A stretch of 64,000 bases of DNA, taken from the NCBI GenBank assembly GCA_937890335.1, contig CALBXO010000841.1:200-64199 (forward strand), in the 5' to 3' direction. The notes under the pieces were generated by a model, which saw only the letters and a program-made list of their open reading frames with translations, did no database searches and was not told where the DNA came from. Origin of the DNA: an uncultured Pseudomonadota bacterium (GTDB lineage Bacteria; Myxococcota_A; Bradymonadia; Bradymonadales; GCA-2716585). Made by a program: the position numbers and the translations under genes. Positions 12,423 to 63,850 of the stretch are shown here, one piece after another (the first letter of the stretch is position 1; each line of letters starts with the position of its first letter).

Positions 12423-14075
12423 CTACGAGTTCTGACCCCCGGCCCCTTTGAGGCGGTCGTCCCCTCTTGTTGTCCTGAGCCGGCGCTCGACCCCGCTCAT
12501 GCGGGGGCTGGAGGTGTCAATGGCGGCGCGGACGACATCGGGGCTGCCCACGATGGTCACGTTTTGGATCGCCCGGGTCACCGCCGTGTAGAGCAGCTCT
12601 CGCGTCAGCAGCGGGCTGTCCTCGTGCGGGAGCAAGACGATGATTTCCTCGGCCTCGGAGCCCTGGGCCTTGTGGACCGTAGAGGCGTAGACGGTCTCGT
12701 GTTCCGGGAGGAGAGACGGCGGCAGACTGCGCAGACCCTCCAGGTCGAACCAGGCCTCGCCGTCGCGGATGAGCCCCACGTTTCCGTTGCGCAGGTCCAT
12801 CGCCCGGTCGTTGCGCCGGATCATCAGCGGGCGCCCCTCGTACCACAGTCCGCGCCGGGCGATCTTGCCGGCGTCGACCAGCCAGGCGTGGGCCAACTCG
12901 TTGACGGTGCTGACGCCGCGGGGTCCGTGGCGGTGGGCGCAGAGGATGCGAAGCTTGCGCAGGCGCGCAAGGCCCAGCTCCGGTGGGAGGGTCGCCAGGT
13001 CACCCCACACGGCCTCCACCCGCGCACGCAGGAGGGTCTCCAGGCCACCGGCGCCACGGGTGGCCGGCTCGACGAGGTTCACGTCGGGGTAGGTCTCCAA
13101 CGCCAGCAGCGCGGCGTCGGCGTCTTGTTCGCGGATCGCCTGAGAGAGGGCTTGGATGCCCTCACCGTCGGTGCGCCACACGTGGGTCAGCCGAGCGGTG
13201 GCGCTCGCCAGCGGCTCGTGGGAGGCCGCGCGGCAGATGTCTCCGAGCACCGAGCCGTAGTCCACCGAGCGCAGCTGGTCCGGGTCTCCAAGCAGCACGA
13301 CCTGTGTCTCGGGCCAGACGGCGGACAACAGCCGCGCCATCATCGCGGCGTCCACCATGGACGCCTCATCGAGCACGACCACGTCCGCAGCGATGGGGTT
13401 GGACGGCCCGTGCCGGAAGATGCCTTTGTCCACGTCGATCACGCCCAGCAGGCCGTGGAGCGTCCCTCGGGTCTGGGGAAGGTCCACGCCCTGAACCTGC
13501 TGTGCCAGACGGTCTGCCGCCTTGCCCGTAGGGGCCGCCAGGGCGACCTGCGGCCGGGCGCCGCTGCGCTGGAGACACTCGAGGAACATTCGGACGACGG
13601 TGGTTTTGCCGGTGCCCGGCCCGCCGGTGATCACGGCCAGACGCCGGGTCAGAGCGACCTGGACCGCGGCGCGGCCACTGGCCTGACGCGGATCGTCCGT
13701 AAACACCTGATCGACGAGCCCGGCCGCGGTCGCCGCCGACATCGACGTCGCTTGCGAAGCCCTGGCGCGGACAGCGTCAACGATCGTGGTCTCCACGATC
13801 CAACAGCGGTCCAGGTAGAGCGAATTGCCCTGGAGCACCAGGGGTGTGCGTCCGGGTCGGCCCGGCGCGCGGACAAGCGCGGACGGCGCCGCGCGCACCG
13901 CGTCGCACTCGGGGACGGTCAGCTCTGCGCAGAGGTGCCCTGCGGACGGGGCCCAGCAGGCGCGGGCCAGCACCTCCGACAGCAGCTCCCCGGTCGCGCC
14001 AGAGCGCCGCAGCATGGCGGCTGCAAACGCCCGGTCCACCGGACGCAGCAGATCCTCCTCGGGCTCATCGGTCAT
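12423..14075 (-). CDS. recD: Exodeoxyribonuclease V alpha subunit RecD (intact copy)
   Basis: SF1 helicase motifs VITGGPGTGKTT (Walker A), VVVLDEASMVD (Walker B) and TVHKAQGSE. Its ATG overlaps the recB stop (ATGA at 14072-14075). Its codons 1-47 lie inside the duplicated tract. Confidence 0.9.
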   Translation of the reverse strand: MTDEPEEDLLRPVDRAFAAAMLRRSGATGELLSEVLARACWAPSAGHLCAELTVPECDAVRAAPSALVRAPGRPGRTPLVLQGNSLYLDRCWIVETTIVDAVRARASQATSMSAATAAGLVDQVFTDDPRQASGRAAVQVALTRRLAVITGGPGTGKTTVVRMFLECLQRSGARPQVALAAPTGKAADRLAQQVQGVDLPQTRGTLHGLLGVIDVDKGIFRHGPSNPIAADVVVLDEASMVDAAMMARLLSAVWPETQVVLLGDPDQLRSVDYGSVLGDICRAASHEPLASATARLTHVWRTDGEGIQALSQAIREQDADAALLALETYPDVNLVEPATRGAGGLETLLRARVEAVWGDLATLPPELGLARLRKLRILCAHRHGPRGVSTVNELAHAWLVDAGKIARRGLWYEGRPLMIRRNDRAMDLRNGNVGLIRDGEAWFDLEGLRSLPPSLLPEHETVYASTVHKAQGSEAEEIIVLLPHEDSPLLTRELLYTAVTRAIQNVTIVGSPDVVRAAIDTSSPRMSGVERRLRTTRGDDRLKGAGGQNS

Positions 14076-17000
14076 GGTGCCCTCCGCTCAAGTACAGACT
14101 CAAGGCGCTCGAGGCCCGCCAGTGTCGGCCTGCGCCGCCACACGCCGTGCCCGGACCCATGCTCCGGCACCATGCCCCGCACAAAGGCGTAGATCACCTC
14201 GCCGAAGTGCGCCTCAAAGTCGTAGGTGGGACCCAGCCGCTGCTTCAGGAGACGGTGGAGCGCCAGCGCGTAGAGCTCGGCCTGGAGCAGGTAGCCGCGG
14301 TCCCACATGACCTTGGAGAGGCGGCCCGCCGCGTAGTCGGACCAGCGGGGACCCAGCCGGTTGGACTTCCAGTCCAGGAGGTAGAACCGCCCCTCGCGCT
14401 CGAAGATCAGGTCCAACCGCCCCTCGAGGAACCCGGTCACGGGGAGGAACCCCAGACCGGCCACCATCTTGGAGAGCGGCTCGTCAAAGCCACGCGAGAG
14501 CTGTTGGGCGCTCAGGGGCGACGACGGGTCGTAGCCGCCGCGCACGGGCAGCGCGAACGATGGCTCGCGCAGCGTTTGGGACCAAGGCAGGTCCGACAGC
14601 GTGAACCCATCGTCAAACAGGGGCGTGCGCAAGGCCCCGTGCAGCGACTCGCTCAGGAGCGGCACGGCCGCCGCGTCCACGCCGTGGGCAGCCGCGTACC
14701 GCGCGACCAGAGTCCGCAGCTCCGTCTCCGAAGCCTGGAGGTCGTGGTGTTCGAGCGCGTCGTGCACTGTGTCACCCACGTGACTGCCACCCTCGAGCTC
14801 AGCCAGAGGGATGAGACCCGTCGGCTGCGACTCGACGCGTGCCGCGCCTGACGTTCCTGCTGCGCCGGACGTCGGGCCGCCAGAGGGCTCGGGCCCCGTC
14901 TTGCCATTTGCGCTGCCGCCGTCCGACCCCACCCGCGCCTCATCGAGGCCGTCTCCATCCGACGCGTCGGCGTCCACCGCGTCGTCGTCGCGGTCCTCCC
15001 GCGGGACCTCCTGCCTCGCGGGGAGATCTTGTCCCCGCGTGAGGCTCGAGTACGAGACGCGCCGCCACCATGTGTCCAACGGGCGCGACCGCTTCCTCGT
15101 GCGGACCGTCAGAGAATCGGGATGTACAGGGTCCTTCTCTGTCCAACGTGTGGTCTCGATCGACCCCGTCGGGTCCCACCCTCCGGCAGAAATCTGCGCG
15201 TGTTGCGCCAGGTGGTTCAGGTCCTCCTGGATGTCGCTGTCCCTCCTGACGCGGGCGCTGGCCGATGTGCGAAGATCCTCGACCGTCGCCGCGTCGCGTC
15301 CGCGGTGGAGCAGGTAGCCCATTGCGGACTCGGTCCCGGCGGGTCCCCAATAGATGACGCAGCGGTGCCTCGCGCGGGTGACGGCCACGTAGATCTGCCG
15401 CAGGTCTTCGCGCAGCTTGTCGGTCTCCATGGCGGCGGTCGCCACCGGCAGCGTGGGTACCCGGACGTCCAGGACCCAACGCGCACCCTCCGCATCCCAG
15501 TAGCGCGGCACGTCCCCGTCCGCGGTCCCGACATAGGTCGGCATCCAGGCAAACGGCAGCCAGACCCGGTCGTACTCCAGGCCCTTGGCTTTGTGGATGG
15601 TGCTGATCTGGACCGCGTCGTCGTCGGACTCCACGCGTTGTGCGGCGAGCTCCTCGTCGGTGCCTGGACCCCCGGCGGAGAACCACGCGAGCAGGCCTGC
15701 CGGCGCCCGGCGCTCCTCGAACTCCGCGCGGTGGAGCAGCGCAAAGAGGTGACGCAGGTCGGCGGCTGTGCGGCCGCCGCCGGGCCGGGACAGGATGCGC
15801 TCCAGCACGCGGTCTTCCTGCGCCCACTGCTCGAGCGCGGCGAGCACACCCTCCTCCCGCCAGGTCGCGTTCCAGCGGCGCATGGCGGTCATGCTCTGCG
15901 CCCAGAGCACGGGTGTTGCCTTGAGGTCCACCAGATCCTGGCCGGTGCGACCCATCAGCGGTGTGGCCAGCGCCTGCGCCACCGCGGAGTGGTCGCCGGG
16001 GGCGTGGAGCGCACCCAGGATCGCGTGGAGCGCCTTGGCGACCGGGCTCTGGAACGCCGTATCCGCTGTGCGCAGCACGACGGGAACGCCGCGACGCCTG
16101 AGCGCGTCACGAACCTGCGACGCTTGCCCGTTGGTGCGGGTCAGCACGGCGCACATGGAGGGAGTCGCGCTGTGACTGCTCAGCTCACGCACGATCTCTT
16201 CGGCGACCTCCTCCACGCAGACTCGCGCCAGGTTCCACTGGTTGAACGCACCGTGCTTGAGCAGGCGATGCCATCGGTCGGTCGGGCGCTGGATGTGGCG
16301 AATGTCGAGAGGCGCGCGGTCGTCGCCGAGCCGGTTGTCCTGGTGGTGGGCGTCCACCTTCTCAAACTGGATGTCTGGGGTCGCGAACGGCATTGGCCCG
16401 TCAAAGAGGCGTCCCACCGCTTTGAGCAGCCTCTGGTCTGAGCGGAAGTTGGTCCGCAACGGTGAGCTCTTGCCCGCGGAGTTTACGGCGGCGACGTACG
16501 AGTGCACGTCCGCGCGCCGGAACGCGTAGATCGACTGCTTGGGGTCCCCCACAACCAGGAGCCGCTTGCCTGCGAACAGTTCCTTGAACACGGCCCACTG
16601 CACCGGGTCCGTATCTTGGAACTCGTCCACCATCGCCAGATCCCACCGATCCTCGACCGCGCGCTTGAACGCCACCGCCCCAGCGCTGTCGCGCACCTGC
16701 CGCAGGAGATCCTCGAACGAGCGCTCGTCGCGGCGCCGCGCTTCCTCGAGCGTTGCCACGCGGATGCGCCGCACGAGCTCTCGCCGAAGCCGCGTCGCCC
16801 AGCTCCGCAGCGCACCACCCACGCTGGCGTGCAGGGCCCGCAGCACGGCGAGCCTCTCCACAACGGGATGCACGGGCGGCGCGTGCCCCGCGCGGGTCGC
16901 CGCGGCGATGAACTCCACGGTGAACCGGTCCGCACACGTTGGGACCGGCGCGAGCAGGTTGGGGCCCGCCAGCCACTTCAGGAGCGCGTCGATGTCATCC

Positions 17001-17752
17001 CGCGTTCCCTTGCCGGGAAACGACTCCGCGTAGTTCGAGGAGCGCCGACCCACGAGCGCAGGGTTGTCCACGAAGGTCTCGTCCAGCGACCGCTGGCTCG
17101 CCACCTCCCGTACGAGGGCAAGAGCCTGCTCAAACGGGGCGAGATCCGGCGCGTCCCCCACGGGCTCCACCGGCTCCGGCAGCGCCACCACGTCTCGCTC
17201 CTGCGCCTTCTTGGCCAGCTCCGTCAGCGACCGGTGGCTGAACCCAGCCGTGTCCAGCGCACGCACAAACAGGGCCGATTGCTGGGTCGTCAGGCGCCGC
17301 AGCTCGTCCACGACTACCCGCTCGGCGGCCTCCGCAGCCGCGGAGCCTTCCGTATTTGACAGGGACGCGCCCGCCTCAAACGCGCACGTGACGAGCAGCC
17401 GGCTGCAGAAGCTATGGATCGTCGAGATGGCCGCGAGATCGAAATCCACGAGCGCCTGCTGAATCCCATCGACGGCCGCGGACCCTGCACCGCGGACCCA
17501 GCGACCCAGCACGTCGTCTGGCGGGGTCCATGGGGCCCCCGCGTCGCGGGCGCGCAGCCCCTGCAGCGCGTCTCGCAGGCGCGCGCGCACCTTGGTCTTC
17601 AGTGACGCCGTGGCCGCGACCGTGAACGTCACCACGACGATGCGGTCAATGGAAACCCCACCGACGATCTCCTCGAGCACGCGCTGCGCCAGGGTAAACG
17701 TCTTGCCGGTCCCGGCGCTGGCCTGGACCGACTCAAGGTAGTCCAGCGTCAT
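14072..17752 (-). CDS. recB: Exodeoxyribonuclease V beta subunit RecB (helicase-nuclease), copy 1
   Basis: UvrD/Rep motifs VQASAGTGKTFTL and MVDEFQDTD. C-terminal PD-(D/E)xK nuclease with YLLDWKSN and QAELYALAL. It has 4-nt overlaps with recC and recD. Confidence 0.9.
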   Translation of the reverse strand: MTLDYLESVQASAGTGKTFTLAQRVLEEIVGGVSIDRIVVVTFTVAATASLKTKVRARLRDALQGLRARDAGAPWTPPDDVLGRWVRGAGSAAVDGIQQALVDFDLAAISTIHSFCSRLLVTCAFEAGASLSNTEGSAAAEAAERVVVDELRRLTTQQSALFVRALDTAGFSHRSLTELAKKAQERDVVALPEPVEPVGDAPDLAPFEQALALVREVASQRSLDETFVDNPALVGRRSSNYAESFPGKGTRDDIDALLKWLAGPNLLAPVPTCADRFTVEFIAAATRAGHAPPVHPVVERLAVLRALHASVGGALRSWATRLRRELVRRIRVATLEEARRRDERSFEDLLRQVRDSAGAVAFKRAVEDRWDLAMVDEFQDTDPVQWAVFKELFAGKRLLVVGDPKQSIYAFRRADVHSYVAAVNSAGKSSPLRTNFRSDQRLLKAVGRLFDGPMPFATPDIQFEKVDAHHQDNRLGDDRAPLDIRHIQRPTDRWHRLLKHGAFNQWNLARVCVEEVAEEIVRELSSHSATPSMCAVLTRTNGQASQVRDALRRRGVPVVLRTADTAFQSPVAKALHAILGALHAPGDHSAVAQALATPLMGRTGQDLVDLKATPVLWAQSMTAMRRWNATWREEGVLAALEQWAQEDRVLERILSRPGGGRTAADLRHLFALLHRAEFEERRAPAGLLAWFSAGGPGTDEELAAQRVESDDDAVQISTIHKAKGLEYDRVWLPFAWMPTYVGTADGDVPRYWDAEGARWVLDVRVPTLPVATAAMETDKLREDLRQIYVAVTRARHRCVIYWGPAGTESAMGYLLHRGRDAATVEDLRTSASARVRRDSDIQEDLNHLAQHAQISAGGWDPTGSIETTRWTEKDPVHPDSLTVRTRKRSRPLDTWWRRVSYSSLTRGQDLPARQEVPREDRDDDAVDADASDGDGLDEARVGSDGGSANGKTGPEPSGGPTSGAAGTSGAARVESQPTGLIPLAELEGGSHVGDTVHDALEHHDLQASETELRTLVARYAAAHGVDAAAVPLLSESLHGALRTPLFDDGFTLSDLPWSQTLREPSFALPVRGGYDPSSPLSAQQLSRGFDEPLSKMVAGLGFLPVTGFLEGRLDLIFEREGRFYLLDWKSNRLGPRWSDYAAGRLSKVMWDRGYLLQAELYALALHRLLKQRLGPTYDFEAHFGEVIYAFVRGMVPEHGSGHGVWRRRPTLAGLERLESVLERRAP

Positions 17753-20700
17753 GGCACACTCCCGAGGATCGCCGCCGCCAGGTCGTCAAAAGCGCGCCCG
17801 GGCAACGCTGGGACGCCTACGATGGGCCCGTCCAGACGCTGGCCGCCGAAGACCCACGCCTCGTACGGGCCGGGTTCGTGGTCGTCCCGGTTTCGGGCAT
17901 CGGCAAATCTGTCCACGAAGGGCAGCGGGACACGGCGCGCGTCGTGGACGATGTCCATCCAGGCCGCCAACAACGCTCTGGCCTCCTGCTGCGGGGGCAA
18001 TTCGCACTGCCACTCCCCTCCCTTGTGCAGAAGGGTGACGCCGTCCACGGGCGCACCGCTGGCCCGGAGCGCCACGGCCTGCACCCATGCCCCCAGCTTG
18101 TGCTTGCGGCCGGCAGAGGACGAGGTCCATTCACAGACTCGCCCCCCGCGCAGCGACGCGGCACCGTAGAGACGCACGCCGTTGGTGCCGAGGTCCACCC
18201 GGTGAGGCGCTGCGGCAGGCCAAGCAAGAACAGCCCCCGCCATCCCCTCGCACACCGGCAGCACGGACTCCACAAGCAACCTTCCTCGCGTGCCCGCAGG
18301 CACGACGCCGCGGGCTTGGAGGAGTTCGGACGGATCCGCACCCGCGAGCAGCGCGCGGGTAACCTGGGTCTTGAGCTTCCACTGGCCCAGGCCTCCGCTC
18401 CACGACTCGCCATCCAGCGGCTCCGTATCCGAGAGCGGGTCCTCCGCCTCGCGCAGGTAGATGCGCAGCGAGCGCGTGCAGAAGAATTTGATGGGGTTCT
18501 TCAGGCAGGAAATCAGCCGATGCAGCCGCAACTCCACGAGGTCCGGCGGGTCCAACGGCGTCTCCAGAAACGTGTGGGGAGGGTCCTCGGCGCCCCGGCC
18601 ACGCAGCGCAGCCTTAGCGGCGGCACAGTGGTGCTCGTCAAAGCTGCGTCCCGCCAGATAGGGGCCCGCCGCGTAGGGCTGGAGCGGGTGGTCCACGGTC
18701 ACCGCGGCGGCGAGGCCCGGCTGCGCCTCCTCCAGGACATCGAGCAGCTCCGCCACCGGCACCGCCGGAGGTCGCTCCTGACCGTCGCGGGGAGAGCGGG
18801 AGGTCGTGAAGATCTCCAGCCTGTCGCGGGTGCTCAGGACCGTCTCCATAAGCAGAGCCCGGTCGTCCTGTCGCACGTTCACATCGCCATCGCGCGGGTC
18901 GGACGCCATGATGTCGTAGGCCGGTTGCGCGCCCTGCCGCGGGTAGGCGTCCTCGTCCATGCCCACCAGGCAGACCACGCGGAACGGCACGCTGCGCATG
19001 GGGACCATGGCACAGACAGTCACCCCACCTGCCAGGTAGTTGCGCCCCGGCTCTGACAGGCCAAAGCGGTGCTCCACCAGGCTCACGAAGGCGTCCAGCG
19101 GCAGCGGCTCGGTGCAGTGGGTTCCGGCACCGGCCACCTCATCGAGCGCTTGCCGGACGGCGCGCACGGTCCACCCTCCTTTCCCGCACAGATGGGCGAG
19201 CAGCTCCAGAAGCCGCTCCTGCCAGGCTGCCGCGAGGTGGAACCCAGAAAGTCTTTCCCGCGCGCGCGCGAGGCCCTCCACAAAAGAGACCAGCACACCG
19301 ACCAGGTCAGACTCCGCGTCCGGCTCGGCGACGGGCGCCAGACCCAGCACGAGATCGTCGGTCCTCACTGCCAGGCCCAGGAGCATGCGGTCCAGTCCGT
19401 GCTGCCAGGTGAAGTTCTCCAGAGCGGGCAGATCGAGGCTCGCGCGGTGGGTGTCGTCCAGTCCCCAATGAATCGCCGCGTCCCCAGCCAGCTCCCGCAG
19501 GCGAGTCATGGTGTCCGGCTCCACACCCCATTGCAGCGCCACCTCAGGCCGACCGAGCAGGTCGAGCACGCGGGTGACCTCAAACCGTCCGCGCACAAGA
19601 TCCACGGCGTCGAGCAGGGCGCTGGCCGCGGTGTTGCGGACGCGCAGACTGGCGTCTGCCAGGCGCATGGGGATGGCCGGCGACGCCGCCCCGCGATCCA
19701 AGCGCAGCGCGGCGCGGATGAGGGGCCCAAAGCGGTCGATGTCCGGCGTCATCACCAGCACATCGCGCGGTTGAAGGCCGTCGTCCTCAAAGGCCTCCAG
19801 CAACACGTCGCGCAGCGCCTCCACCTGCCGCTGCTCGCCACCACATCGGTGGACACGGATGGTCGGCGCCGACCCCGCCACAATGGGCTGCGCGGGCTGA
19901 TTGGGCGCAGCGAGCGCGCGCTGCACGGCACCGAGCACGCCCTTCGCCGGCGGCGGCCCAAACAGCTCCACGCGCTCGGCGCCTGCAAAGTGATGGTCGA
20001 GCAGCCGGCCGAACGCCGCCGCCTGCGCCCCGAGCGAGTGGTGCAGCGGGTGGCCGCGCAGCGCCCCTGGCCGGAGCACAAACAGCTCCAGCGGCACCTC
20101 CCCACCCGCCGCCGCGAGCAGCTCCATCACCGCCGGCGGCAGGATCCCCGGACAGAACACGGCGAGTCGTCCCGGCAGCGCGCGCCGATCGAGCGCCAGG
20201 CCGTCCCCGCTCCCAAAAGGACTCGCCGGCGGCACCGATCGGGGCGCTGGGCCGTCCTTGCGGGCCCCAGCGTCGGGCTCGCCTGAGCGCCGGCACACAA
20301 AGAGATGCCACAGCGTCTGCTGCCACCCCTGGCCCGGTCCCCACGCCTGTATCTCCTGAGGACGGTACAGCGCGTACCGCTCAAAGCGCGGCGCGAGGTC
20401 CAGAGCCAGCTGGGAGAGACGACGACTCTGGTACGCCGGGCCGTCTGCGAGGGACCACGTCTCCACCTCCGGCAACGCGGGCATGTGGTGGAGCAGAAGC
20501 GCCAACAGATCCCAGACCAGACGCTGACGAGACCACGCCTCGCCGCCGCCACAGAGCCTCTCCACGAGCTCCATCGGCTGAAGGAACTCGACCCCGGCAC
20601 AGACCCCCGTCTGGTGCGCCAACTGCTGCTCAATCCAGGTCCCAAGCCCGTTGGAATGAACCAGTACCACGTCCTGGACCAGAGGCCGCGCAGGCGTGGA

Positions 20701-55282: not shown

Positions 55283-56745
55283 GCGCCGAGTAGCTCCGCG
55301 ATGTCCAGGTCCTGTCTGCGATCCTCCTTGACCGGCGCCACGCGCAGACGCACCTCCGCATGGACCGCCATTGTCGCGGGACGCAGTGCATCCTCGCCCC
55401 GCAGGTCGACCGCCTGGCAGGCCGCCAGAAGATTCATGATGGCCACGGTCTCCGAGAGCTCCAGGACGCGCTGGGCATCACGGGCTGCGATGGTCCCCAT
55501 GGAGACTTTGTCCTGGTTGTGACACTCGGTGCTCCGGCTGAACGACGCGGCGGGCATGGTCAACTTCAGCGCCTCCGCGGTCAGCGCCGACGTGGCGATG
55601 GAGACCGCCTTGAACCCATGCCCCACCGAGCCGCCGGGCCAGGCCAGACTCGGGGTCAACGCGTTGTTGTACGCCGGGTTGCACAGGTGCTGGACCTGCC
55701 TGTCGAGCAAATCCGCGATGCTCGCCACTGCAGCCTTCAGCGCGTCCATCGCGAAAGCGATGTGGCCGCCATAGAAATTCCCGCCGTGTAGAACGTCACC
55801 CGTCGCCGGGTCAAAGATGGGATTGTCGTTGACACTGTTGATCTCCGTCTCCACGAAGGTCTCCAGCATCGGCAGCGCGTCGACGAGGACGCCAATCACG
55901 TGGGGCGCGCAGCGCAGGGAGTACCGATCCTGGATGCGCGGGGCGGGCCGGTCGGGGCCACCAACAAGCGCATCCCGTATCCACCCGGCGGCGCGCGCCT
56001 GCCCAGGGTGGGGCTTGGCCTCAAAGATGCGCGCATCGAAATGGGAGGCGTTGCCGTCCAGTACGTCCACGACCATGGCGGAGACGGTTGCTGCGGCCCG
56101 CGCCAATTTGCGCGCGCGAGAGCAGGCCAGCGCCGCAAGTCCCGTCATCACGCTCGTCCCGTTCATCAGCGCCAGGCTCTCCTTGGGCAGCAGGGCCAGC
56201 GGCTCGATCCCCAGGGCGTCGAACACGCGGGCTGTGGTGGTGAGCTCGCCCTCATAGAGGACCTCGCGCGACCCGCTCAGCACCGCCGCAATGTAGGACA
56301 GCGGCGTCAGATCTCCGCTGGCCCCCACAGAGCCCTCGCAGGGGATGCGCGGAAGGATCTGTGAGTTGACCAGCTGACACAATCGCTCGACCACTACGGG
56401 CCGCACCGCCGAATGTCCGCGGGACAACGACACCGCCCGCACCACCATCACCGCCGTGGTCTCCTCCGGGGTCAGACAGGCGCCGGTGCCGCATCCGTGG
56501 AACCGGACCAGGTTGCGGGCCAGCTCCAGCCGGCTGTCCGCCGACTCGACATCGCGCACGCAATCATCACCAAACCCAGTCGTGACACCGTAGACCGCGC
56601 GGCCCTCTGCGAGCTGTCGCTGAAGCGCCTCGTGGGAGCAGCGACACACCTCGGCGGCGTCTGGATGCAGAGCGATGTGTTGCCGTCCGTGTGCTGCATC
56701 CACCACGTCGTCGATTCCCAAGGGCTCGACCCCGATCATCAACAT
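55243..56745 (-). CDS. Aromatic amino acid ammonia-lyase (MIO enzyme), copy 2
   Basis: Identical to 30414..31916. Confidence 0.9.
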   Translation of the reverse strand: MLMIGVEPLGIDDVVDAAHGRQHIALHPDAAEVCRCSHEALQRQLAEGRAVYGVTTGFGDDCVRDVESADSRLELARNLVRFHGCGTGACLTPEETTAVMVVRAVSLSRGHSAVRPVVVERLCQLVNSQILPRIPCEGSVGASGDLTPLSYIAAVLSGSREVLYEGELTTTARVFDALGIEPLALLPKESLALMNGTSVMTGLAALACSRARKLARAAATVSAMVVDVLDGNASHFDARIFEAKPHPGQARAAGWIRDALVGGPDRPAPRIQDRYSLRCAPHVIGVLVDALPMLETFVETEINSVNDNPIFDPATGDVLHGGNFYGGHIAFAMDALKAAVASIADLLDRQVQHLCNPAYNNALTPSLAWPGGSVGHGFKAVSIATSALTAEALKLTMPAASFSRSTECHNQDKVSMGTIAARDAQRVLELSETVAIMNLLAACQAVDLRGEDALRPATMAVHAEVRLRVAPVKEDRRQDLDIAELLGAWRRGELALGGDD

Positions 56746-57659
56746 TCATCACCCCAGAAGTCGTAGAAATTGAACCAGTTGTCTGGAGCCTGCCGGGCGT
56801 AGTGCTCCACCCGGCTGGCATAGCGTTGCGCGAGATCCTCGAGTGCCCGTGCCTTGGCTTTGCCTCGAGGCAGCACGATCTTGTCGGAAAACGGCTCACA
56901 GTACAGATCGTAGCGATCGCCACCACGATACAGCCCGAATGTCAGGTACACCGGGCACCCCAAAAGCGCCGCAAGGATGTAGGGCCCGGTCGGAAGTCGC
57001 GCCGGTGCGCCCATAAACTGGACCGTCGCGGTGCGCGGATTGAGGCCCACACGGTCGCCCAGGAGAGCGACGAACTCTCCGGCCTCGACCCGCTCCTTGG
57101 CCGCGAAGACCGCGTCCAGGCTGCCCGGACGGATCGCCAATACGCACGCGCCCCCCGCCGGGTCCAGCTGGCTGAGCACCTCATTGATCATCTTGGCATT
57201 GTCGACGTACGCTAGGATGTTGATCTTCATCGCCTCCTGCTCGCCCCCGATGCGCATCGCCTCAAAGCTACCCAGATGCGCTCCGAGCAGGACCGCTCCT
57301 CGTCTGGAGTCACGCAGCGCGCTCAGGTGCTCGTGGCCTGTGCGCGTCACCGTAAATCGGGCCAGCTGGCCGCGAACCAGGAACAGCCGGTCGAGCGTGA
57401 CCTGACCAAAACGTAGCAAGTGGCGATACACCGTCCCAAAGCCGACCTTGCGCCCATGGACACGTTCCAGGAAAGCCGCTGAGGACCGCCTGGCGGACCT
57501 GAAGAAGACGGCGTAGTACGCGATGACCACGGTCAGAAACACCCGCGGGACGGCGCGCCCGAATACCGTCGCCAGCAGGACGAACCAGCGCATCCCCAGC
57601 GCAGTGCCTCGCTCCCGCGCGGTGAGCCACTGGACCGAAGTGTCCCCGTTCTGTGTCAT
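56739..57659 (-). CDS. LpxL/HtrB-type acyltransferase, copy 2
   Basis: Identical to 31910..32830. Confidence 0.6.
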   Translation of the reverse strand: MTQNGDTSVQWLTARERGTALGMRWFVLLATVFGRAVPRVFLTVVIAYYAVFFRSARRSSAAFLERVHGRKVGFGTVYRHLLRFGQVTLDRLFLVRGQLARFTVTRTGHEHLSALRDSRRGAVLLGAHLGSFEAMRIGGEQEAMKINILAYVDNAKMINEVLSQLDPAGGACVLAIRPGSLDAVFAAKERVEAGEFVALLGDRVGLNPRTATVQFMGAPARLPTGPYILAALLGCPVYLTFGLYRGGDRYDLYCEPFSDKIVLPRGKAKARALEDLAQRYASRVEHYARQAPDNWFNFYDFWGDEC

Positions 57660-58405
57660 CTGCGCAGCCGTCGTATGCGGCGTCCAGTAGCCACGCGCCA
57701 CATCGCCTCGATTACCAGCCGGGTGTGCGCCCAGGAGATCAGCACATTGTCCTGAAAGGGCCGGAAGTGCGAGACGCCGCCCTGCGCCGCGCTCAGATAC
57801 CGCACCGTGACAGGCTCGTTCACGACCGCGACCCCGGCCCACACCATGCGGACGGCAACCTCGATGTCAAAGTCCATGCGGTCGCCGCTGGCCCGCGCCG
57901 CCGGAAGCGCCGTGGCCACAGGATAGACGCGGAAACCGCACATGGGGTCCGTGATGGCGAGCCCGCCCGTCTCGATCCACGTCCACACGCGTGTGATCTG
58001 ACGAGCGCAACGCCGGAGAAGTGGCGCGGAGGCGTCAAATTGTGGGGCGCCCAGAACGAGGGCGTCCGGGTCCCGGCGCGCCGCGTCTACGAAGTCGACA
58101 AGCCGCGTCAGGTCGTGCTGGTGGTCGGCGTCCACCTGCAACGCGTGGGAGAATCCGCGGGTCTCCGCCAGCGAGAGGCCGTCCTTGACCGCCGCCCCCT
58201 TTCCGCCGTTCTCGGACCTGGTATGAACCGACACGCCAGCCAGCGCGCCAATGGACTCCAGCGCAGCCCGAGCCTGCTCCGATCCCGCGTCATCCACGAC
58301 GAAGACCTCGTCGACCACAGCACGCAAGGCGCGGACGACGGCTCCAATCGTGCGGGGGTTGTTGTAGGTCGGCACGACGCCGCACACGCGGAAGTCGTCG
58401 GTCAT
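57656..58405 (-). CDS. Family-2 glycosyltransferase, copy 2
   Basis: Identical to 32827..33576. Confidence 0.8.
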   Translation of the reverse strand: MTDDFRVCGVVPTYNNPRTIGAVVRALRAVVDEVFVVDDAGSEQARAALESIGALAGVSVHTRSENGGKGAAVKDGLSLAETRGFSHALQVDADHQHDLTRLVDFVDAARRDPDALVLGAPQFDASAPLLRRCARQITRVWTWIETGGLAITDPMCGFRVYPVATALPAARASGDRMDFDIEVAVRMVWAGVAVVNEPVTVRYLSAAQGGVSHFRPFQDNVLISWAHTRLVIEAMWRVATGRRIRRLRR

Positions 58406-60030
58406 GGGAACTCCCCAAAAACAAGAGTGCCGGAACTGCAGACTTCCTCTCCCATGAGCAGCCGGAACGCCACCTGATTTGGGCGCGCGATCTCCAGGCT
58501 CAGGACCAGTCGGTCGTCCGGGCCGATGGGTCGTTTGAATTTGAGCCGGTGGACCTCGTGAAGAGGGCCAAACTCGGGCCACGCGTCACGGATCTGCCGC
58601 GCGACGATTCTTTGTAATTGCACTACGCCGGGCAGGATCGGGAAGCCCTCGAAATGTCCCCTGAAGTACAGCAGATTTGCCGGCACGTGCACGTCGTACC
58701 AGCGGCAGTCGCCCTCCGAAGGCAGGGGGGTGATCGGAATCTGTGTCGTGTCCTCAAGGTCCGCCCGCCGCACCTTGCCAAGCTCGGTACGGGGCAGTTC
58801 GTCCACGACGTGGATCCTCGGAATCACGCTGCGTTGGAGGTGCTGCCCGAGGTAGCCGCGCAAGTCCCCGAGACCATCTCGCACCACGACGAACGCGGAC
58901 AGAGACGCCGTACGCAAGGGCGAACCCGCCTCCGCAAACACGGCGGCGTCCACCACATCCGGGTGGGCTAGAAGCAGGTCCCGAACGTCGCCCACCGCGA
59001 CACGGATGCCGCCAACCTTGACCACATCGTCGAGCCTGCCCAGGTGCTCAAACCCGTTGCCGTCGGCGCGCACCTTGTCCGCACACGAGTACGGACGAGG
59101 GCAATCCGGGGGCAGAAACGGCGAGTCGATGAGCAGAGTTCCGTCGTCGTCGACGTCCCACACTACACCGGGAAGCGGCAGGAACGGCTCACGCGGCGAC
59201 GCGCGCCGGTAGGCAATCCCCCCTGTCTCCGTGGACCCGAGCACCTCGGTGACCTGCATGTGGTGACGCGAGTCCAGTTCCCGCGCCACAGTGGGCGGCA
59301 GCGGCGCGCCCGAGGAGAAAACGTGGCACCGGGGAGCAGTGAGGTCGGACAGCACGCAAAGCGCCTGTAGATGCGCTGGCACGGTGACAAGAACATCCGC
59401 CTCCTCCAGCTGTGCCGCCACCGCGTTGGGATGGAACGGCGCGACCCTGACGAACGACCCTCCCGAGCCAAGGGGAACAAGCACCGTGAACAGCAGGCCG
59501 TAGATGTGTCTAGGCGCGACGGTACCCAGGACGCGGGTGCCTGGTTGGATGCCGAACGTATCCCGGATGACCGCTGCCTCGCCCAGGAGTTGGCCAGCCG
59601 TTTTGGTCATCGGGCGGGCGTCACCGCCAGTGCCGGAGGTGTACAACACGACCAACGTCCGCTCTGGCGGGTGACTGCGAAAACTCTTGAGGGTCGGTGT
59701 GCTCAGAGCGGACGAGCGCCAGGGAGTGGTCAGGACAAGGGCGGACTCAGAGTGGGCTACGCTGCGGACGCCCTCGGGCGCGTCGGTCGGCGCCAGGACC
59801 ACGCGCCACCCCAGCTCCCACGCGGCCAGCATCTGGACCGCGAACTCATACCGGTCGCTCTCGGAGACGAGCAACGCTGCAGCCTGGCCGCTGGCGCGAA
59901 GTACCCCCGCGCACCCAGCGACGTCCGCGAGAAGCTCCGACAAAGTGGTGGTGCCCTGCGCCCCGCGCGCTACGACGCAACCGGGTCCACGAAAGCGGTC
60001 GACCGCCTGTAGCGAGCCCGCCTCAGCCAT
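58402..60030 (-). CDS. AMP-ligase fused to dehydratase, copy 2
   Basis: Identical to 33573..35201. Confidence 0.85.
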   Translation of the reverse strand: MAEAGSLQAVDRFRGPGCVVARGAQGTTTLSELLADVAGCAGVLRASGQAAALLVSESDRYEFAVQMLAAWELGWRVVLAPTDAPEGVRSVAHSESALVLTTPWRSSALSTPTLKSFRSHPPERTLVVLYTSGTGGDARPMTKTAGQLLGEAAVIRDTFGIQPGTRVLGTVAPRHIYGLLFTVLVPLGSGGSFVRVAPFHPNAVAAQLEEADVLVTVPAHLQALCVLSDLTAPRCHVFSSGAPLPPTVARELDSRHHMQVTEVLGSTETGGIAYRRASPREPFLPLPGVVWDVDDDGTLLIDSPFLPPDCPRPYSCADKVRADGNGFEHLGRLDDVVKVGGIRVAVGDVRDLLLAHPDVVDAAVFAEAGSPLRTASLSAFVVVRDGLGDLRGYLGQHLQRSVIPRIHVVDELPRTELGKVRRADLEDTTQIPITPLPSEGDCRWYDVHVPANLLYFRGHFEGFPILPGVVQLQRIVARQIRDAWPEFGPLHEVHRLKFKRPIGPDDRLVLSLEIARPNQVAFRLLMGEEVCSSGTLVFGEFP

Positions 60031-60661
60031 GCCCCTCGCCGATGATTCTGCGCAACGCGCGGTCGTGCAGGCCAGTGCCGAACTCCCGGAAGCGGACCTT
60101 CCGCACAATGTACTCCCCTGTGAACATGCACCCCATCAGAGCATAGGCGATGATCCCGGTGTACAGGGCCCACCACGAGACTGGCGCCCACAGTGCCAGG
60201 CCCGCTGCGATGGTGCCGTTGACGACGAAGAAGACGCACCACACGAGCGTGACCTTGCGGCAGTACGGCAGGTGCGCGTCGGGAAGGTCTGGGTGCTGCA
60301 GACGCGCAAAACGCTCGACCATCGACACCGGCTGGCGCAACGTGACGCCAAAGCCAACGAGCAGCGCTGCGTTGATCAGTACCGGCATGAGGAGCACGTA
60401 GACTGGGTCGTTGAGAACGACGCCGAGCACGATGAGTCCCACCACCGCCAGCGGCAGTCGCGCCACTGCCCAGAGTTCCGCCCGTCTGCGCCCCCGGGCG
60501 CGCATCACGAACGCACCGATGACGACGCCGACGAGCAGGAGGCCGCCGCCGCGCAGGCTCCAATGCGTGAGCGCAAGGTACACCAACGCCGGGTAGAGCA
60601 GGACCAGAGTCGTGTTGATAACGGCCGTTACGACCTTGAGGGTGGTGTCAGACCGGGACAT
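60023..60661 (-). CDS. Integral membrane protein, copy 2
   Basis: Identical to 35194..35832. Confidence 0.65.
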   Translation of the reverse strand: MSRSDTTLKVVTAVINTTLVLLYPALVYLALTHWSLRGGGLLLVGVVIGAFVMRARGRRRAELWAVARLPLAVVGLIVLGVVLNDPVYVLLMPVLINAALLVGFGVTLRQPVSMVERFARLQHPDLPDAHLPYCRKVTLVWCVFFVVNGTIAAGLALWAPVSWWALYTGIIAYALMGCMFTGEYIVRKVRFREFGTGLHDRALRRIIGEGHG

Positions 60662-61175
60662 CCGCCGGTTGGGTCATCAGGGACTCCACCAGGTCGACGA
60701 CATCTCGAACACGACGCACTTCCATGAGACTCTTCTCAGGAACACGCGTCCCGGTGAACTCCTGCAGCTTCACCGCCATGTCCAGCGCGTCGATGCTGTC
60801 GAGGTCGAGGTCCTCAAACAGGTGGACATCCAAGGTGATCTCTCCCGGGTCGATCTCGAACATCTCTGAAAGCGTATCCCGAATCTTCACGAAGATCTGC
60901 TCGCGCGGACCCAGAACCACAGCCTCGCGGCGCGCGTCTACGTAGGCGGCAAGTGACCGCAGTGATGTGAAAATCGCTCGGTTATCGTCGTCGCCCGCCG
61001 TGAACTCCACACCGTAGGCGCGCTTGATGACCATGGCGATCTCAAGCGCGTCGATGGAGTCCAGATCCAGCTCCTCGAAGAGGTGGCCTTCCGGGGGGTG
61101 CGAATCCAGGTCGACGTCAGGCAACAACAGAGCCTCCACGATGAGACTCAGCAGCTCTCTTTCAAATGCGTTCAT
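60648..61175 (-). CDS. Tandem di-domain ACP, copy 2
   Basis: Identical to 35819..36346. Confidence 0.85.
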   Translation of the reverse strand: MNAFERELLSLIVEALLLPDVDLDSHPPEGHLFEELDLDSIDALEIAMVIKRAYGVEFTAGDDDNRAIFTSLRSLAAYVDARREAVVLGPREQIFVKIRDTLSEMFEIDPGEITLDVHLFEDLDLDSIDALDMAVKLQEFTGTRVPEKSLMEVRRVRDVVDLVESLMTQPADVPV

Positions 61176-61186
61176 TGGACCAAAGG

Positions 61187-61966
61187 CTACGACCCATGGC
61201 TGGACTTGAGGCGTCCTTCATAGGTGCGTCGCAGACCCCGCATCAAAGCGCGATCGCCAGCCTTCTGATCCGCCAACCTGACCGGATCCATGGACTCAAT
61301 CGCGTAGTGGACAACGTTAAGCGGAAAACTATACCACCCCCTACCCTTAGTCAACACGGGTGGATCGCACCGAATGAACAGTGGCTGAAGCGGCACTCCG
61401 GCCGCCCGCGCAATGCGCATCGCACCCCTTTTGAAAGGCAATAACTCACCTGGCGAGCTGCGGGTCCCCTCGGGAAAAATCAGCACAGGACAGCCACTCA
61501 TGACACTGGCGCAGGTGCGCTCCACGACCTCGATTCCACCTGCCGCCGTGCCGTCACCGCCATCGAGGAAGCCGCAACAACGAAACAGGAGTCCCAGGAG
61601 CGGATTGTGGTATCGCTTGCCTTTGACCAGCACCGTGGCGTCCGGGTAGGCAGCGAGCAGCGCGATGACGTCCACGAGGGTCGGATGGTTGGCCACGAGG
61701 ACAAAGCAGGGCGCCGGACGGGGCGGGTCGAAGGACCGGGGGTTGTAGTCGAAAAACCCCATCCATCGCATGTAGTCGAAGAACCACCGAAACGTCGTGG
61801 ACACCCAGCGCCGGCAGCGGCGGGCGCGCACTTCTGACGGGCCAGGGCCGAGCAGCCATACGAGGGGAAGCACCGACCACCCGAGGACGCCCCCGCCGCA
61901 GTAGAACACCACGAACGCCGCCCCGACCAGACCGCTGCGGACCCAGCGATGGACTGTCTTCCACAC
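61187..61966 (-). CDS. PlsC-type acyltransferase, copy 2
   Basis: Identical to 36358..37137. Confidence 0.85.
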   Translation of the reverse strand: MWKTVHRWVRSGLVGAAFVVFYCGGGVLGWSVLPLVWLLGPGPSEVRARRCRRWVSTTFRWFFDYMRWMGFFDYNPRSFDPPRPAPCFVLVANHPTLVDVIALLAAYPDATVLVKGKRYHNPLLGLLFRCCGFLDGGDGTAAGGIEVVERTCASVMSGCPVLIFPEGTRSSPGELLPFKRGAMRIARAAGVPLQPLFIRCDPPVLTKGRGWYSFPLNVVHYAIESMDPVRLADQKAGDRALMRGLRRTYEGRLKSSHGS

Positions 61967-61975
61967 GACGCGGCA

Positions 61976-62003
61976 TTGTGGGCGAGACGGCTGCGGCCCA
62001 CAA
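61976..62003. promoter_or_regulatory. Inverted repeat TTGTGGGC-N12-GCCCACAA, copy 2
   Basis: Same element as 37147..37174 at +24,829. Confidence 0.25.
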
Positions 62004-62137
62004 GAGCGTCAGCGGAATCCACATCCTTGGAATCGGCTCGAAAGATGAACGGGCCGGCGCCAAAGGAGCCAGCCCATTGCCTGCTCGCCCAGTATCCCTT
62101 CGGTGCCGACCCCTGCCTGGGTACCCCGGTACGCCCG

Positions 62138-63850
62138 TCAGGCGTTGGGAGCGGGCCGACCGACTTCCGCTTCGGACTGGTCCACAGCCGCCGCGAGTAC
62201 GCGCAAGAGCGCCTCGTCTTCGAACGCGTCGGCCAGGACGCGCACGCGCGTCGCGAAGGGGCTGGGCTGCTCGCGTTCCAGCTGGCGACACAGCGCGGCG
62301 ATGGCGTCGAGATTGCCCACTCTGGCCAGGGTGGACATGCGCGCCAATGTGTCGCCGGACGGCAATCGCTGGGCGTGGACCTCGTCGGACACGGCGTCGG
62401 ACGCCGCACCGATGGTCGGGCCTTCATGCCCCGTTGCTGAAGCTGACCTTGTGGGCAGCGTCCCCGGCGGCGCCGCGGACAACGGCAGCGTGAAGAAGAA
62501 CGTCGAGCCCGCCCCGTACTCGCTGCGCAGCTGCAGGTCCCCGCCCATCAGATCCACAAGCCGCTGCGAGATCGCCAGCCCCAGGCCGACGCCGTCGGCC
62601 TCACGCTTGCCGGCCTCCGCTTGCTGGAAGGACTCGAAGATGGTGTCCCTCGTGGATGGCTCGACCCCGGGTCCGGTGTCCTCCACCTCAAACAGGATAC
62701 CTTCCGGGCCCTGTGAGACGAGCAGCACAACGTGTCCCGTCCCGGTGAATTTGACGGCGTTGCCCACGAGGTTGAGCAGCACCTGCCGCAGGCGTTTTCC
62801 GTCCGCCCAGACCCACTCGGGAGCGGCCGGGTCGAGTCTGAGTCCGAGTGTCAGGCCCTTGGATGACGCTCGCCGGCGCAGAAGGTTCACCACGGAATCG
62901 AGCAGGGATTTGAGGTGGACCTCCGTAGGGTCGAGTTCCAGCCTGTCCGCCTCGACCCGTGCCAGATCCAGCAGGTCATCCACGACTGCACTGAGGTGCT
63001 GGCTGCTGTCTTCAATGATCCCCAGTCCCTGCGCGGTTTCTGCATCGATGCCTGCGCGGCGCAGAAGCGCTTGCGCGTAGCCTAGAATCGCATTGAGCGG
63101 TGTGCGGATCTCGTGACTCACCGTGGCCAGAAACGCGGTCTTTGCTCTGCTCGCGGCCTCGGCCGAGGCCCGCGCCGCAACCTCCAGCGTCACCTTGCGC
63201 TCCTCCTCCAGGGAGTGCGCCAGCACCTTGTGCCCAAACTCGGCGACAAAGCCCACCATGACGCCGATCGCCACCATCATCAGGCCGCGGGCGACGACCG
63301 AATGCCAGGTCCCCAGGTGCTGGATCAACCAACCATGGTCCCCGATCGCTGCGAAGGAGGGCTGTGCGAGGTAGAACACCAACAGCTGCTGCGCCCCCGC
63401 CCAGACGCCCATCACCATGGGCAGCCGCCGCTCCAGCGTGATGCCGCTGAGCACAGTCGCGAGAATCCAGAGCAGCGCCGGCGGTCCCACGAGGATCGAG
63501 GCCGCCCCCCACGGGAAGACGGCCTGCGTCCCCAGCGCCAGCACGGTGGGCCACGTCGAGAAGAAGAAGACGTAGCCGTACATCAGGCGCCGGTTCAGAC
63601 GCCCCTGGCGCGCCAGGTACCACATGGAAGCTGTAACGGGGACCATCAGCGACATGGCCGCGGGCTCCCTCGCCCACGGATTGACGCCGTCACCGTCGGC
63701 TCCGACAAACCATGCGGCCAGGACGAGGAGCTGCATTGCCAGGCCCAGCATGGCAACGCGGTGCATGGTCCAGTTGAGGCGACGGTACACCAGCTCGTCG
63801 AGCGTCCGAGTTCCGGACGCGGGGGCCCGTGACGGCGTCAACGCGCCCAT
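62138..63850 (-). CDS. Membrane sensor histidine kinase (about 6 TM - HisKA - HATPase_c - C-terminal extension), intact parental gene
   Basis: 570 aa. Hydrophobic N-terminal 230 aa. H-box FLATVSHEIRTPLNAILGY, N-box LLNLVGNAVKF, DTGPGV, GVGLGLAISQRLV. Its codons 87-570 lie inside the duplicated tract. Confidence 0.9.
   Translation of the reverse strand: MGALTPSRAPASGTRTLDELVYRRLNWTMHRVAMLGLAMQLLVLAAWFVGADGDGVNPWAREPAAMSLMVPVTASMWYLARQGRLNRRLMYGYVFFFSTWPTVLALGTQAVFPWGAASILVGPPALLWILATVLSGITLERRLPMVMGVWAGAQQLLVFYLAQPSFAAIGDHGWLIQHLGTWHSVVARGLMMVAIGVMVGFVAEFGHKVLAHSLEEERKVTLEVAARASAEAASRAKTAFLATVSHEIRTPLNAILGYAQALLRRAGIDAETAQGLGIIEDSSQHLSAVVDDLLDLARVEADRLELDPTEVHLKSLLDSVVNLLRRRASSKGLTLGLRLDPAAPEWVWADGKRLRQVLLNLVGNAVKFTGTGHVVLLVSQGPEGILFEVEDTGPGVEPSTRDTIFESFQQAEAGKREADGVGLGLAISQRLVDLMGGDLQLRSEYGAGSTFFFTLPLSAAPPGTLPTRSASATGHEGPTIGAASDAVSDEVHAQRLPSGDTLARMSTLARVGNLDAIAALCRQLEREQPSPFATRVRVLADAFEDEALLRVLAAAVDQSEAEVGRPAPNA

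Follow-up and report, generated by a model that had tools for sequence, protein, structure and literature searches.

The locus considered here, a window of 64,000 bases out of a 64,981-bp public metagenome-derived contig, raises the question of whether a long and perfect tandem repeat is carried by the cells of an uncultured aquatic bacterium or was created between those cells and the assembled sequence, and, if cells do carry it, how and how recently it was formed. A perfect 24,829-bp tandem duplication had been claimed in the first-pass annotation, with a self-comparison of the window proposed as one check. That comparison bears the claim out: at an offset of 24,829, window positions 13934-38765 equal 38763-63594 as direct head-to-tail copies with a period of 24,829 bp, 24,832 consecutive positions matching with 0 mismatches, 0 indels and 0 N. 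The two copies are thus 100% identical, and nowhere in the whole window does this offset give a second run of at least 15 bases. The ORF pairs that had first drawn attention to the repeat (14072..17752 and 38901..42581, 27064..29406 and 51893..54235, 36358..37137 and 61187..61966) each lie exactly 24,829 apart. Chance cannot produce a perfect repeat of 24.8 kb. The repeat and its junction are placed as follows, none of the three having a strand.

13934..38762, no strand: unit copy 1, each position equal to its counterpart in 38763-63591
38763..63591, no strand: unit copy 2, from the self-comparison, its right flank continued by the public contigs L002 and L005 (ENA k141_244004)
38763..38765, no strand: novel junction, a GGT common to unit end and unit start, the same GGT standing at 13934-13936 and 63592-63594

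Around these three GGT triplets, the left end reads ...ctgcgcaga-GGT-gccctgcgg (13934), the junction ...catcaggcgcc-GGT-gccctgcgg (38763), or at greater length ...CATCAGGCGCC-GGT-GCCCTGCGG..., and the right end ...catcaggcgcc-GGT-tcagacgcc (63592). Outside the repeat the bases diverge, 13933 being a vs c at 38762, and 38766 being g vs t at 63595. All three contexts and both pairs of differing bases are as originally reported, as is the unique DNA on either side, the right flank measuring only 406 bp within the window and being lengthened by 960 bp in L002.

How the two ends came to be joined depends on what they have in common. When 200,000 random breakpoint pairs were drawn on the collapsed sequence, an accidental overlap of at least 3 bp was found in 7.0% of them, and the 3-bp microhomology is therefore compatible with chance (P = 0.07). 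Extended homology between the endpoints was not found: in register they are 32% identical within ±150 bp, and locally they match best over 15 nt, out of register. The collapsed sequence contains no repeat of at least 20 nt at which a de Bruijn-graph or overlap assembler could have made a false join, and its self-BLAST returned as the sole repeat a 57-bp, 77% match of one ACP domain to another. No tRNA was found in the window, no Rfam family in window 1-40000, and no transposase or integrase Pfam domain in the genes scanned, which cover the unit and the flanking genes apart from two left-flank ORFs, a partial one at 9-1112 and the GDPD gene at 4094-5179. These searches agree with the earlier statement that no tRNA, transposase, integrase or long flanking repeat lies at the ends. 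The description of the event as illegitimate and microhomology-mediated fares less evenly: its first half fits ends without long homology, but "microhomology-mediated" is unsupported because 3 bp fall within chance, and "no long homology" is the safer wording. Because the endpoints lack homology, formation would appear to have been RecA-independent.

One end of the unit lies at recD codon 47 and the other at codon 86 of the gene for a membrane histidine kinase, with reading frames intact over both outer boundaries. The following genes bear on what the duplication doubles, what it leaves single and what it creates.

12423..14075, minus strand: intact recD, 550 aa (Pfam AAA_30, AAA_19, UvrD_C_2, RecD_N)
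14072..17752, minus strand: recB copy 1, 1226 aa (Pfam UvrD-helicase, UvrD_C, PDDEXK_1)
38901-42581, minus strand: recB copy 2, identical to copy 1
17749..20763, minus strand: recC copy 1, 1004 aa (Pfam Exonuc_V_gamma, RecC_C; gene call in L001)
42578-45592, minus strand: recC copy 2, identical to copy 1
20948..37137, minus strand: aryl-polyene/flexirubin-type cluster, copy 1, ~17 genes (Pfam, NCBIfam)
45777-61966, minus strand: aryl-polyene/flexirubin-type cluster, copy 2, identical to copy 1
62138..63850, minus strand: intact membrane sensor histidine kinase, 570 aa (Pfam HisKA, HATPase_c)
37309..38904, minus strand: junction-spanning chimeric ORF, 531 aa, RecD(1-47)-kinase(87-570), in frame (translation, codon reading)

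The recC, recB and recD domains recognised by Pfam, together with translational coupling through 4-nt ATGA overlaps, identify a RecBCD (exonuclease V) operon, and the same recCBD form is found in a relative at 64% identity. The homologues of RecB, which their source annotations call exodeoxyribonuclease V beta subunit, begin at that 64% for the nearest one beyond this population, and the next reach at most 37%. Upstream in the direction of transcription lies the pigment cluster, whose genes are listed below for copy 1 by rising window coordinate, transcription on the minus strand running the opposite way.

20948-22168, minus strand: KS
22165-22908, minus strand: KR
22884-23330, minus strand: ApeP-like dehydratase
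23327-23983, minus strand: KS-like
23980-25137, minus strand: KS
25201-26436, minus strand: flavin halogenase-like
26433-27023, minus strand: DUF3261
27064-29406, minus strand: MMPL/RND
29403-30038, minus strand: LolA-like
30016-30399, minus strand: 4HBT thioesterase
30414-31910, minus strand: aromatic ammonia-lyase
31910-32830, minus strand: LpxL-like acyltransferase
32827-33576, minus strand: GT2
33573-35201, minus strand: AMP-ligase + ApeI-like dehydratase
35194-35832, minus strand: 212-aa protein
35819-36346, minus strand: double ACP
36358-37137, minus strand: acyltransferase

The set combines type II FAS-like KS, KR, DH and ACP functions, dehydratases of the ApeI and ApeP types and an aromatic starter-unit pathway with LolA-like, MMPL/RND and DUF3261 proteins and acyl- and glycosyltransferases, as is characteristic of aryl-polyene/flexirubin-type clusters; gene calls with precomputed Pfam domains are also present in L001 and L002. 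Among NCBIfam models, NF006587 (KS) scores above its cut-off and FabG is matched, while the similarities to FlxA, FlxB, tyrosine ammonia-lyase, 4-coumarate-CoA ligase and CmlS all fall below theirs. With the FlxA and FlxB equivalog scores below cut-off, the predicted assignment of the cargo is to the aryl-polyene/flexirubin-type class only and to no specific product. The Pfam and NCBIfam content agrees with the first reading of the unit as one that doubles recBC and a pigment cluster; recD is not duplicated.

At the left, the breakpoint falls in recD codons 47/48, and only the first 47 recD codons are inside the unit; the recD gene call is the same in the public contigs L001, L003 and L004. 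At the right, the breakpoint falls in kinase codons 86/87, past the first 2 of ~6 hydrophobic segments in the hydropathy profile. The same 570-aa kinase is called in L002 and L005, and a LuxR-type response regulator precedes it. The chimeric ORF made by the junction keeps HisKA and HATPase_c (Pfam), and its ATG overlaps the stop of recB copy 2 (ATGA), just as that of the native recD overlaps recB. A random fusion has a prior of 1 in 3 of being in frame. An identical 531-aa protein (P0002, MTDEPEEDLL...SAGHRRLMYGY...) is present in a public protein collection from 2 contigs, the longest of 64,981 bp. NCBI and ENA, the sources of the two, share their records, so that a single record has probably been counted twice. 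This in-frame RecD'-'kinase fusion gene is absent from the first-pass annotation.

Whether the duplicated form is the usual one can be asked of other samples. Three MEGAHIT contigs from other metagenomes, one of them from the Baltic Sea, are 99.96-100% identical to the window over the stretches read. All three pass unbroken over a unit boundary, and the coordinates of one prove that it has a single copy: in ENA k141_244004 (40,428 bp), the kinase occupies record positions 1111-2823 and the recD stop is at 27709, so that the distance between them is exactly one unit, as the alignment predicts (r = 40132 - w). At the left boundary, contigs k141_548550 and k127_108656 run on without a break, with 99.98-100% identity, and L002 and L005 (ENA k141_244004) match window 51187-64000 at 100%, running on into the right flank. 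Because near-identical single-copy alleles occur in three other metagenome assemblies, we take the duplication, seen in one assembly only, to be derived and not fixed. Given the 99.96-100% identity to those alleles, the event would also be younger than the few SNPs that separate the populations. A search with the 42-nt junction gave 0 matches among GTDB species-representative genomes and 0 among JGI metagenome contigs. Neither absence is informative: a 38-nt unit-start pattern, common to the single-copy and the duplicated allele, is missing from the JGI contigs as well, and the kinase has no close relative among the GTDB representatives (best match 45%, over the catalytic core).

The reading that we favour, at a probability of roughly 60%, is that an uncultured aquatic bacterium carries in its chromosome a very recent, non-fixed tandem duplication, which was formed without homology and is present in at least a sizeable share of the population in the source sample. 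The ancestor would have been single-copy, with the LuxR-type regulator, the sensor kinase, the aryl-polyene cluster, recC, recB and recD on one strand. One homology-free join would then have connected kinase codons 86/87 to recD codons 47/48, 24,829 bp apart and with GGT alone in common, through a long-distance template switch in replication or through homology-free end joining. In the product, L-U-U-R, recB, recC and the pigment cluster would each be present twice, and recD and the kinase once each in intact form, with the new in-frame RecD(1-47)-kinase(87-570) gene occupying recD's place after the second recB. Duplications of this sort are easily lost again through homologous recombination of one copy with the other, and this instability fits the absence of the duplication from other samples. 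The structure, the ends without homology, the single-copy allele in other samples and the fusion ORF are observed directly, whereas it is inferred that cells, and not reads alone, contain the junction, as are the way of joining, the copy number of two and any selection.

The serious rival is an artefact of library or assembly, or a graph loop written twice, which we consider unlikely, though by less than any other alternative. Here the genome would hold one copy, the junction would come from chimeric molecules, from PCR duplicates of one chimera or from a chimeric long read, and the assembler would have threaded the unit twice via the false link. Several observations suit this: the window belongs to a metagenome-derived contig; each of three independent short-read assemblies of this population either has a single copy or continues over the boundaries without a break; and a 3-base overlap is reached by chance 7% of the time. 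A tandem repeat looks like a cycle once it is part of an assembly graph (plasmidSPAdes preprint, 10.1101/048942), and where a self-loop can be entered and left at one point each, the path through it is forced (PMC2821320); the perfect identity of the copies is then automatic. The window does resemble the de Bruijn graph cycles known as "whirls", in which traversal of a tandem repeat cycle gives perfectly identical copies, and the contig, which is metagenome-derived, appears to end near short-read contig end points. The differences in contig ends (64,981 bp vs 40,428 + 24,829 = 65,257 bp) gave no consistent value for the assembler's k. If a de Bruijn-graph assembler unrolled a loop, zero divergence and a copy number of two follow by construction. 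The first-pass annotation had named the right alternatives in a recent or heterogeneous event and an artefact, but the zero divergence on which it drew tells neither age nor copy number in that case. A graph cycle nevertheless still requires junction k-mers from reads, and alters what copy number and identity mean rather than whether the junction exists.

It is on the origin of the junction that the artefact loses ground. Misassembly is classically caused by a repeat common to both sides of the join, and this cause is excluded: a repeat-induced misjoin needs ~20 nt or more (the k-mer or overlap length) vs the 3 nt that are common here, so that "artefact" can mean only chimeric reads or the unrolling of a loop. 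Because the collapsed sequence has no repeat able to cause a false join, the junction must be spelled by at least one actual read. Chimeras form between random places, and a same-strand join of two points 24.8 kb apart in one rare genome, frequent enough to pass coverage filters, is improbable. MEGAHIT-type unitig assemblers are not known to output one sequence twice, so that the junction needed positive support in whichever assembler was used. In metaSPAdes, breakpoint edges are disconnected when their coverage is below ~1/10 of that of their neighbours (PMC5411777), and if such an assembler made the contig, the survival of the junction speaks for something beyond one stray chimera. Merging or cutting up of contigs was considered separately and rejected: a Baltic MAG pipeline does cut contigs into 10-kb pieces (PMC7070063), but any merge depends on sequence that both sides of the join have in common, and 24,829 bp is no round length. 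A very improbable alternative has a real junction but places it on a free 24.8-kb circle, popped out for example on loss of the duplication, beside a single-copy chromosome, the assembler having merged the two into a tandem array. A circle of U with a single-copy chromosome would yield the same assembly graph as L-U-U-R (10.1101/048942 for the general ambiguity), but the unit carries no replication, partition, integrase or excision genes in the Pfam scans and ends inside recD and the kinase gene, a non-replicating circle would be diluted out and hardly reach assembly-level coverage, and its formation presupposes an earlier tandem duplication.

Homology-driven routes through repeats, IS elements or att sites are the commonest sources of bacterial duplications. 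Homologous recombination at repeats, IS elements or phage/island att sites, or an old duplication held identical by gene conversion, is nonetheless scarcely credible here: no flanking repeat, tRNA or, in the genes scanned, transposase or integrase domain is present, and single-copy genomes that are 99.96-100% identical over the stretches read imply that the event is not old. When IS elements, rrn operons or REP sequences give rise to duplications by the RecA-dependent route, the end product is likewise a tandem direct repeat, but a repeat is needed at both endpoints (R-D-R-D-R), and none of that kind exists here. For scale, the "tandem" class of one published classifier requires at least 35 bp at no less than 92% identity (bioRxiv 10.64898/2026.05.22.727201).

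The very recent, homology-free duplication that we favour belongs to an ordinary, known class of unstable bacterial duplication and calls for no new kind of mechanism. In E. coli, the amplified lac units form direct repeats in tandem, 7-32 kb long, with G-rich homology of 4-15 bp at their borders (PMC1428787). Like the lac amplification of E. coli and Salmonella, the present repeat is head-to-tail with a single novel junction, at 24.8 kb here vs 7-32 kb there (PMC1428787), and has few, G-rich junction bases, no repeated element and endpoints inside unrelated genes. It differs in that the lac junctions have 4-15 bp, whereas the 3 bp here are not beyond chance, and in that lac amplification reaches high copy number under a known selection, whereas two copies are written here. 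The lac events were also verified in clones by PCR and sequencing, whereas this organism is uncultured and its duplication is seen in an assembled contig. Amplifications of sdrM in S. aureus, 7-13 kb long, likewise have junctions with microhomology or with no homology (review, PMC11721125). Heteroresistance amplifications (PMC11721125) share with the present case unstable copies in a heterogeneous population, which fits the absence of the duplication from other samples, but here there is no resistance determinant or obvious dosage-selected gene, the unit carrying recBC and a pigment cluster, and the setting is environmental rather than clinical or laboratory.

If the duplication is real, an unstable duplication has been caught segregating in a natural, uncultured population, and one homology-free event doubles a biosynthetic cluster, shifts the RecBC:RecD ratio and makes a fusion gene. 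Duplications of this kind are well studied in laboratory and clinical strains and are seldom documented in the environment. The exact junction would in that case be a simple marker, countable in public metagenome reads. A stronger version, in which a real duplication has become common within a single natural population of an uncultured Baltic-type bacterium and is kept by selection for dosage, whether of the doubled pigment cluster or of RecBC in excess over RecD, seems improbable to us; were it true, the junction could be tracked through the Baltic Sea metagenome series as the amplification rises or falls in the wild, and the RecD'-'sensor-kinase fusion after the second recB would be expressed from the recCBD operon. 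If the repeat is instead an artefact, it is a warning that long perfect tandem repeats in metagenome-derived contigs may reflect an assembler's walk around a loop, so that neither their copy number nor their "zero divergence" should be given a biological meaning. One further feature lies close to the right breakpoint.

63604..63617, no strand: perfect 14-bp palindrome CCTGGCGCGCCAGG

The palindrome lies 10 nt outside that breakpoint and occurs once in the window, and that it took part in the event is speculation.

Aligned to itself with a shift of 24,829, the window gives 24,832 identical positions in one unbroken run (13934..38765 = 38763..63594), free of mismatches, indels and Ns, which bears out the perfect 24,829-bp head-to-tail duplication reported in the first-pass annotation. 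Identity ends at 13933/38762 (a/c) and 38766/63595 (g/t), and the three boundary contexts read there match the sequence exactly. The two ends of the repeated unit (U) have GGT in common at the U-U join (38763-38765).

Segments of the window, from self-comparison at an offset of 24,829
1-13933, left unique flank (L)
13934-38762, U copy 1
38763-63591, U copy 2
63592-64000, right unique flank (R)

Coding ORFs were chosen by GC3 and refined with the gene calls of public contigs, while identities were taken from profile matches. Every gene of the unit lies on the minus strand.

Genes of the unit and flanks, with the ORF created at the junction
2949-3965, minus, 338-aa protein, no credible Pfam family
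5246-8557, plus, Ser/Thr kinase of 1103 aa, adjoining the gene for the 1056-aa protein
8718-11888, minus, 1056-aa protein directly downstream of recD, no credible Pfam family
11920-12381, minus, 153-aa protein, no credible Pfam family
12423-14075, minus, recD (profile match)
14072-17752, minus, recB (profile match)
17749-20763, minus, recC (profile match)
20948-37137 (copy 2 at 45777-61966), minus, aryl-polyene/flexirubin-type cluster of about 17 genes (profile matches)
35194-35832, minus, 212-aa protein, no credible Pfam family
37309-38904, minus, in-frame fusion ORF of 531 aa, RecD 1-47 + kinase 87-570 (from translations)
62138-63850, minus, membrane sensor histidine kinase of 570 aa, sole intact copy (profile match)

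The pigment cluster has a two-component pair on one side and recCBD on the other, the LuxR-type response regulator that precedes the kinase lying just outside the window on L002, a public contig that extends the right flank by 960 bp. By profile matches, its fatty-acid-type genes encode three KS or KS-like proteins, a KR, ApeP- and ApeI-like dehydratases and a double ACP, and its aromatic genes an aromatic ammonia-lyase and a 4-coumarate-CoA-ligase-like AMP-ligase fused to an ApeI-like dehydratase. A flavin halogenase-like (CmlS-like) protein, DUF3261, an MMPL/RND transporter, a LolA-like protein, a 4HBT thioesterase, a GT2 and two acyltransferases are also encoded; on the cluster proteins, scores for the FlxA and FlxB equivalog models fall short of the model cut-offs. 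The gene content of the unit upholds the earlier statement that the pigment cluster and recBC are doubled, with recD remaining single.

Compared in register over ±150 bp, the unit ends are 32% identical with nothing common beyond GGT, and their best local alignment spans 15 nt, includes two mismatches and is out of register. No tRNA was found in the window, no Rfam family in 1-40000, and no transposase or integrase domain among the scanned unit and flanking genes, in agreement with the first-pass annotation; a homologous, IS- or phage-driven origin is ruled out, with no such element or repeat at the ends. The collapsed sequence (L-U-R) contains no internal repeat except a 57-bp, 77% match between two ACP domains, which likewise rules out misassembly through a shared repeat or k-mer. 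The junction must therefore have been spelled by some real read, from a genuine or a chimeric molecule. The label "microhomology-mediated" is not demonstrated: when 200,000 pairs of breakpoints are drawn at random from the collapsed sequence, 7.0% overlap by at least 3 bp by accident, and the GGT is weak evidence. At 63604-63617, 10 nt outside the right breakpoint, is a perfect palindrome of 14 bp, CCTGGCGCGCCAGG, with no second occurrence in the window; that it stalls replication or favours a break is speculation.

The breakpoints fall in recD codons 47/48 (left) and kinase codons 86/87 (right). By translation, recD and the kinase are both intact across their outer boundaries, and the progenitor must therefore be L-U-R. 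The fusion, whose reading frame has a prior of one third, keeps HisKA and HATPase_c and, of the roughly six hydrophobic segments in the kinase, has lost the first two; its ATG overlaps the second recB stop codon (ATGA), as the recD ATG does. An identical 531-aa protein (P0002) is in a public protein collection on two contigs (NCBI and ENA; longest 64,981 bp), probably one record present in both archives. It shares a 90% cluster with the intact kinase, which is on five contigs.

The window makes up 64,000 bases of this 64,981-bp contig from environmental sequencing, and 13 other window proteins are also in the collection, most on five contigs, with 64,981 bp the longest for all. Three further contigs carrying the locus come from MEGAHIT assemblies of other ENA metagenomes and are 99.96-100% identical to the window over the stretches read.

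Further contigs with the locus
k141_548550, ERZ1283799, 43,378 bp
k141_244004, ERZ27056333, 40,428 bp
k127_108656, ERZ964670 (run ERR2206771, PRJEB22997, Baltic Sea metagenome series), 30,943 bp

k141_244004 is demonstrably single-copy: its kinase at record 1111-2823 and recD stop at 27709 are the one-unit prediction (r = 40132 - w), and it is too short to hold a second unit. The other two span the left boundary unbroken. A unitig assembler such as MEGAHIT cannot traverse a branch point, so in those samples the junction edge was absent or too rare to survive pruning; by an analogous rule, metaSPAdes disconnects edges with coverage below one tenth of their neighbours' (PMC5411777). Over 23.7 kb, k141_548550 differs from the window only at 6896, 8086, 11383 and 26487 (= 51316), the last with the same allele in both unit copies. 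In ERZ964670 the locus is split over two contigs with an overlap near 9175-9199, suggesting that strain variation creates a branch there. All three contigs, from three samples, appear to stop some 1.36 kb past the right boundary of the duplication, in the receiver domain of the LuxR-type regulator, as read directly in k141_244004 and deduced from lengths and coordinates for the others; the k127 contig would end 14 bp before a k141 contig, as expected at repeated or strain-variable sequence.

We favour, at a probability of about 0.6, a genuine and very recent tandem duplication formed without long homology, present in one sampled population in at least a sizeable fraction of its members. L-U-R would have become L-U-U-R by a single join. 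Of the two states, the single-copy one is ancestral and still current in other samples; the duplicated one, seen in one assembly, is derived and younger than the handful of SNPs separating these populations. The event belongs to a well-known textbook class. Amplicons at E. coli lac are similarly tandem direct repeats (7-32 kb, 24.8 kb here), with 4-15 bp of G-rich homology at their borders, and are attributed to long-distance template switching (PMC1428787); at the junctions of S. aureus sdrM amplifications there is microhomology or no homology (PMC11721125). Arrays of this kind are unstable and vary within populations (PMC11721125), which fits the absence from other samples.

The choice posed in the first-pass annotation between a recent event and an artefact still stands, with single-copy alleles now known elsewhere. 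An artefact is the main rival, less probable than the favoured reading: the junction would come from chimeric molecules or reads, and the assembler would have passed through the unit twice. The source contig is metagenome-derived. Two further places of the left-flank gene were grouped with k141_244004, whose end is 297 bp to the left of the window; should these be the source contig, its left end is near those of the short-read contigs, and a path-resolving de Bruijn-graph assembler may have produced it. A tandem repeat is a cycle in the assembly graph (10.1101/048942), and a loop that has a single entry and a single exit can be traversed in only one way (PMC2821320). Where the assembler unrolls such a loop, perfect identity and a copy number of two follow by construction, leaving the presence of junction k-mers as the sole informative feature; the zero divergence is confirmed as an observation, and as a sign of recency it may carry no information. 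The same graph as for L-U-U-R would arise from a single-copy chromosome accompanied by a free circle of 24.8 kb, which is improbable because replication and excision genes are absent from the unit. An old or homology-driven origin is contradicted and least credible of all.

If the duplication is real, pigment cluster dosage would be doubled, RecB and RecC would be doubled against a single RecD, and a truncated sensor kinase with a 47-residue RecD leader would replace recD behind the second recB. The fusion would presumably share a transcript and translational coupling with recCB, and not be under its own promoter beside its partner regulator. Nothing in this analysis shows selection for any of these effects. 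Of most use from this analysis is the junction sequence: its occurrences can be counted in the public read sets from the Baltic Sea.

No close kinase relative was found among GTDB representatives, nor the species in the JGI contig set. The nearest RecB relative is 64% identical (next ≤37%) and comes from Logan assemblies of ERR34841xx runs, with the same coupled recC-recB-recD operon and SMC-like ATPase and WYL-domain genes downstream; the short upstream stretch read has no pigment cluster. Most window proteins are on only about five contigs among some 15 billion proteins, and the organism belongs to a lineage that is deep and seldom sampled.
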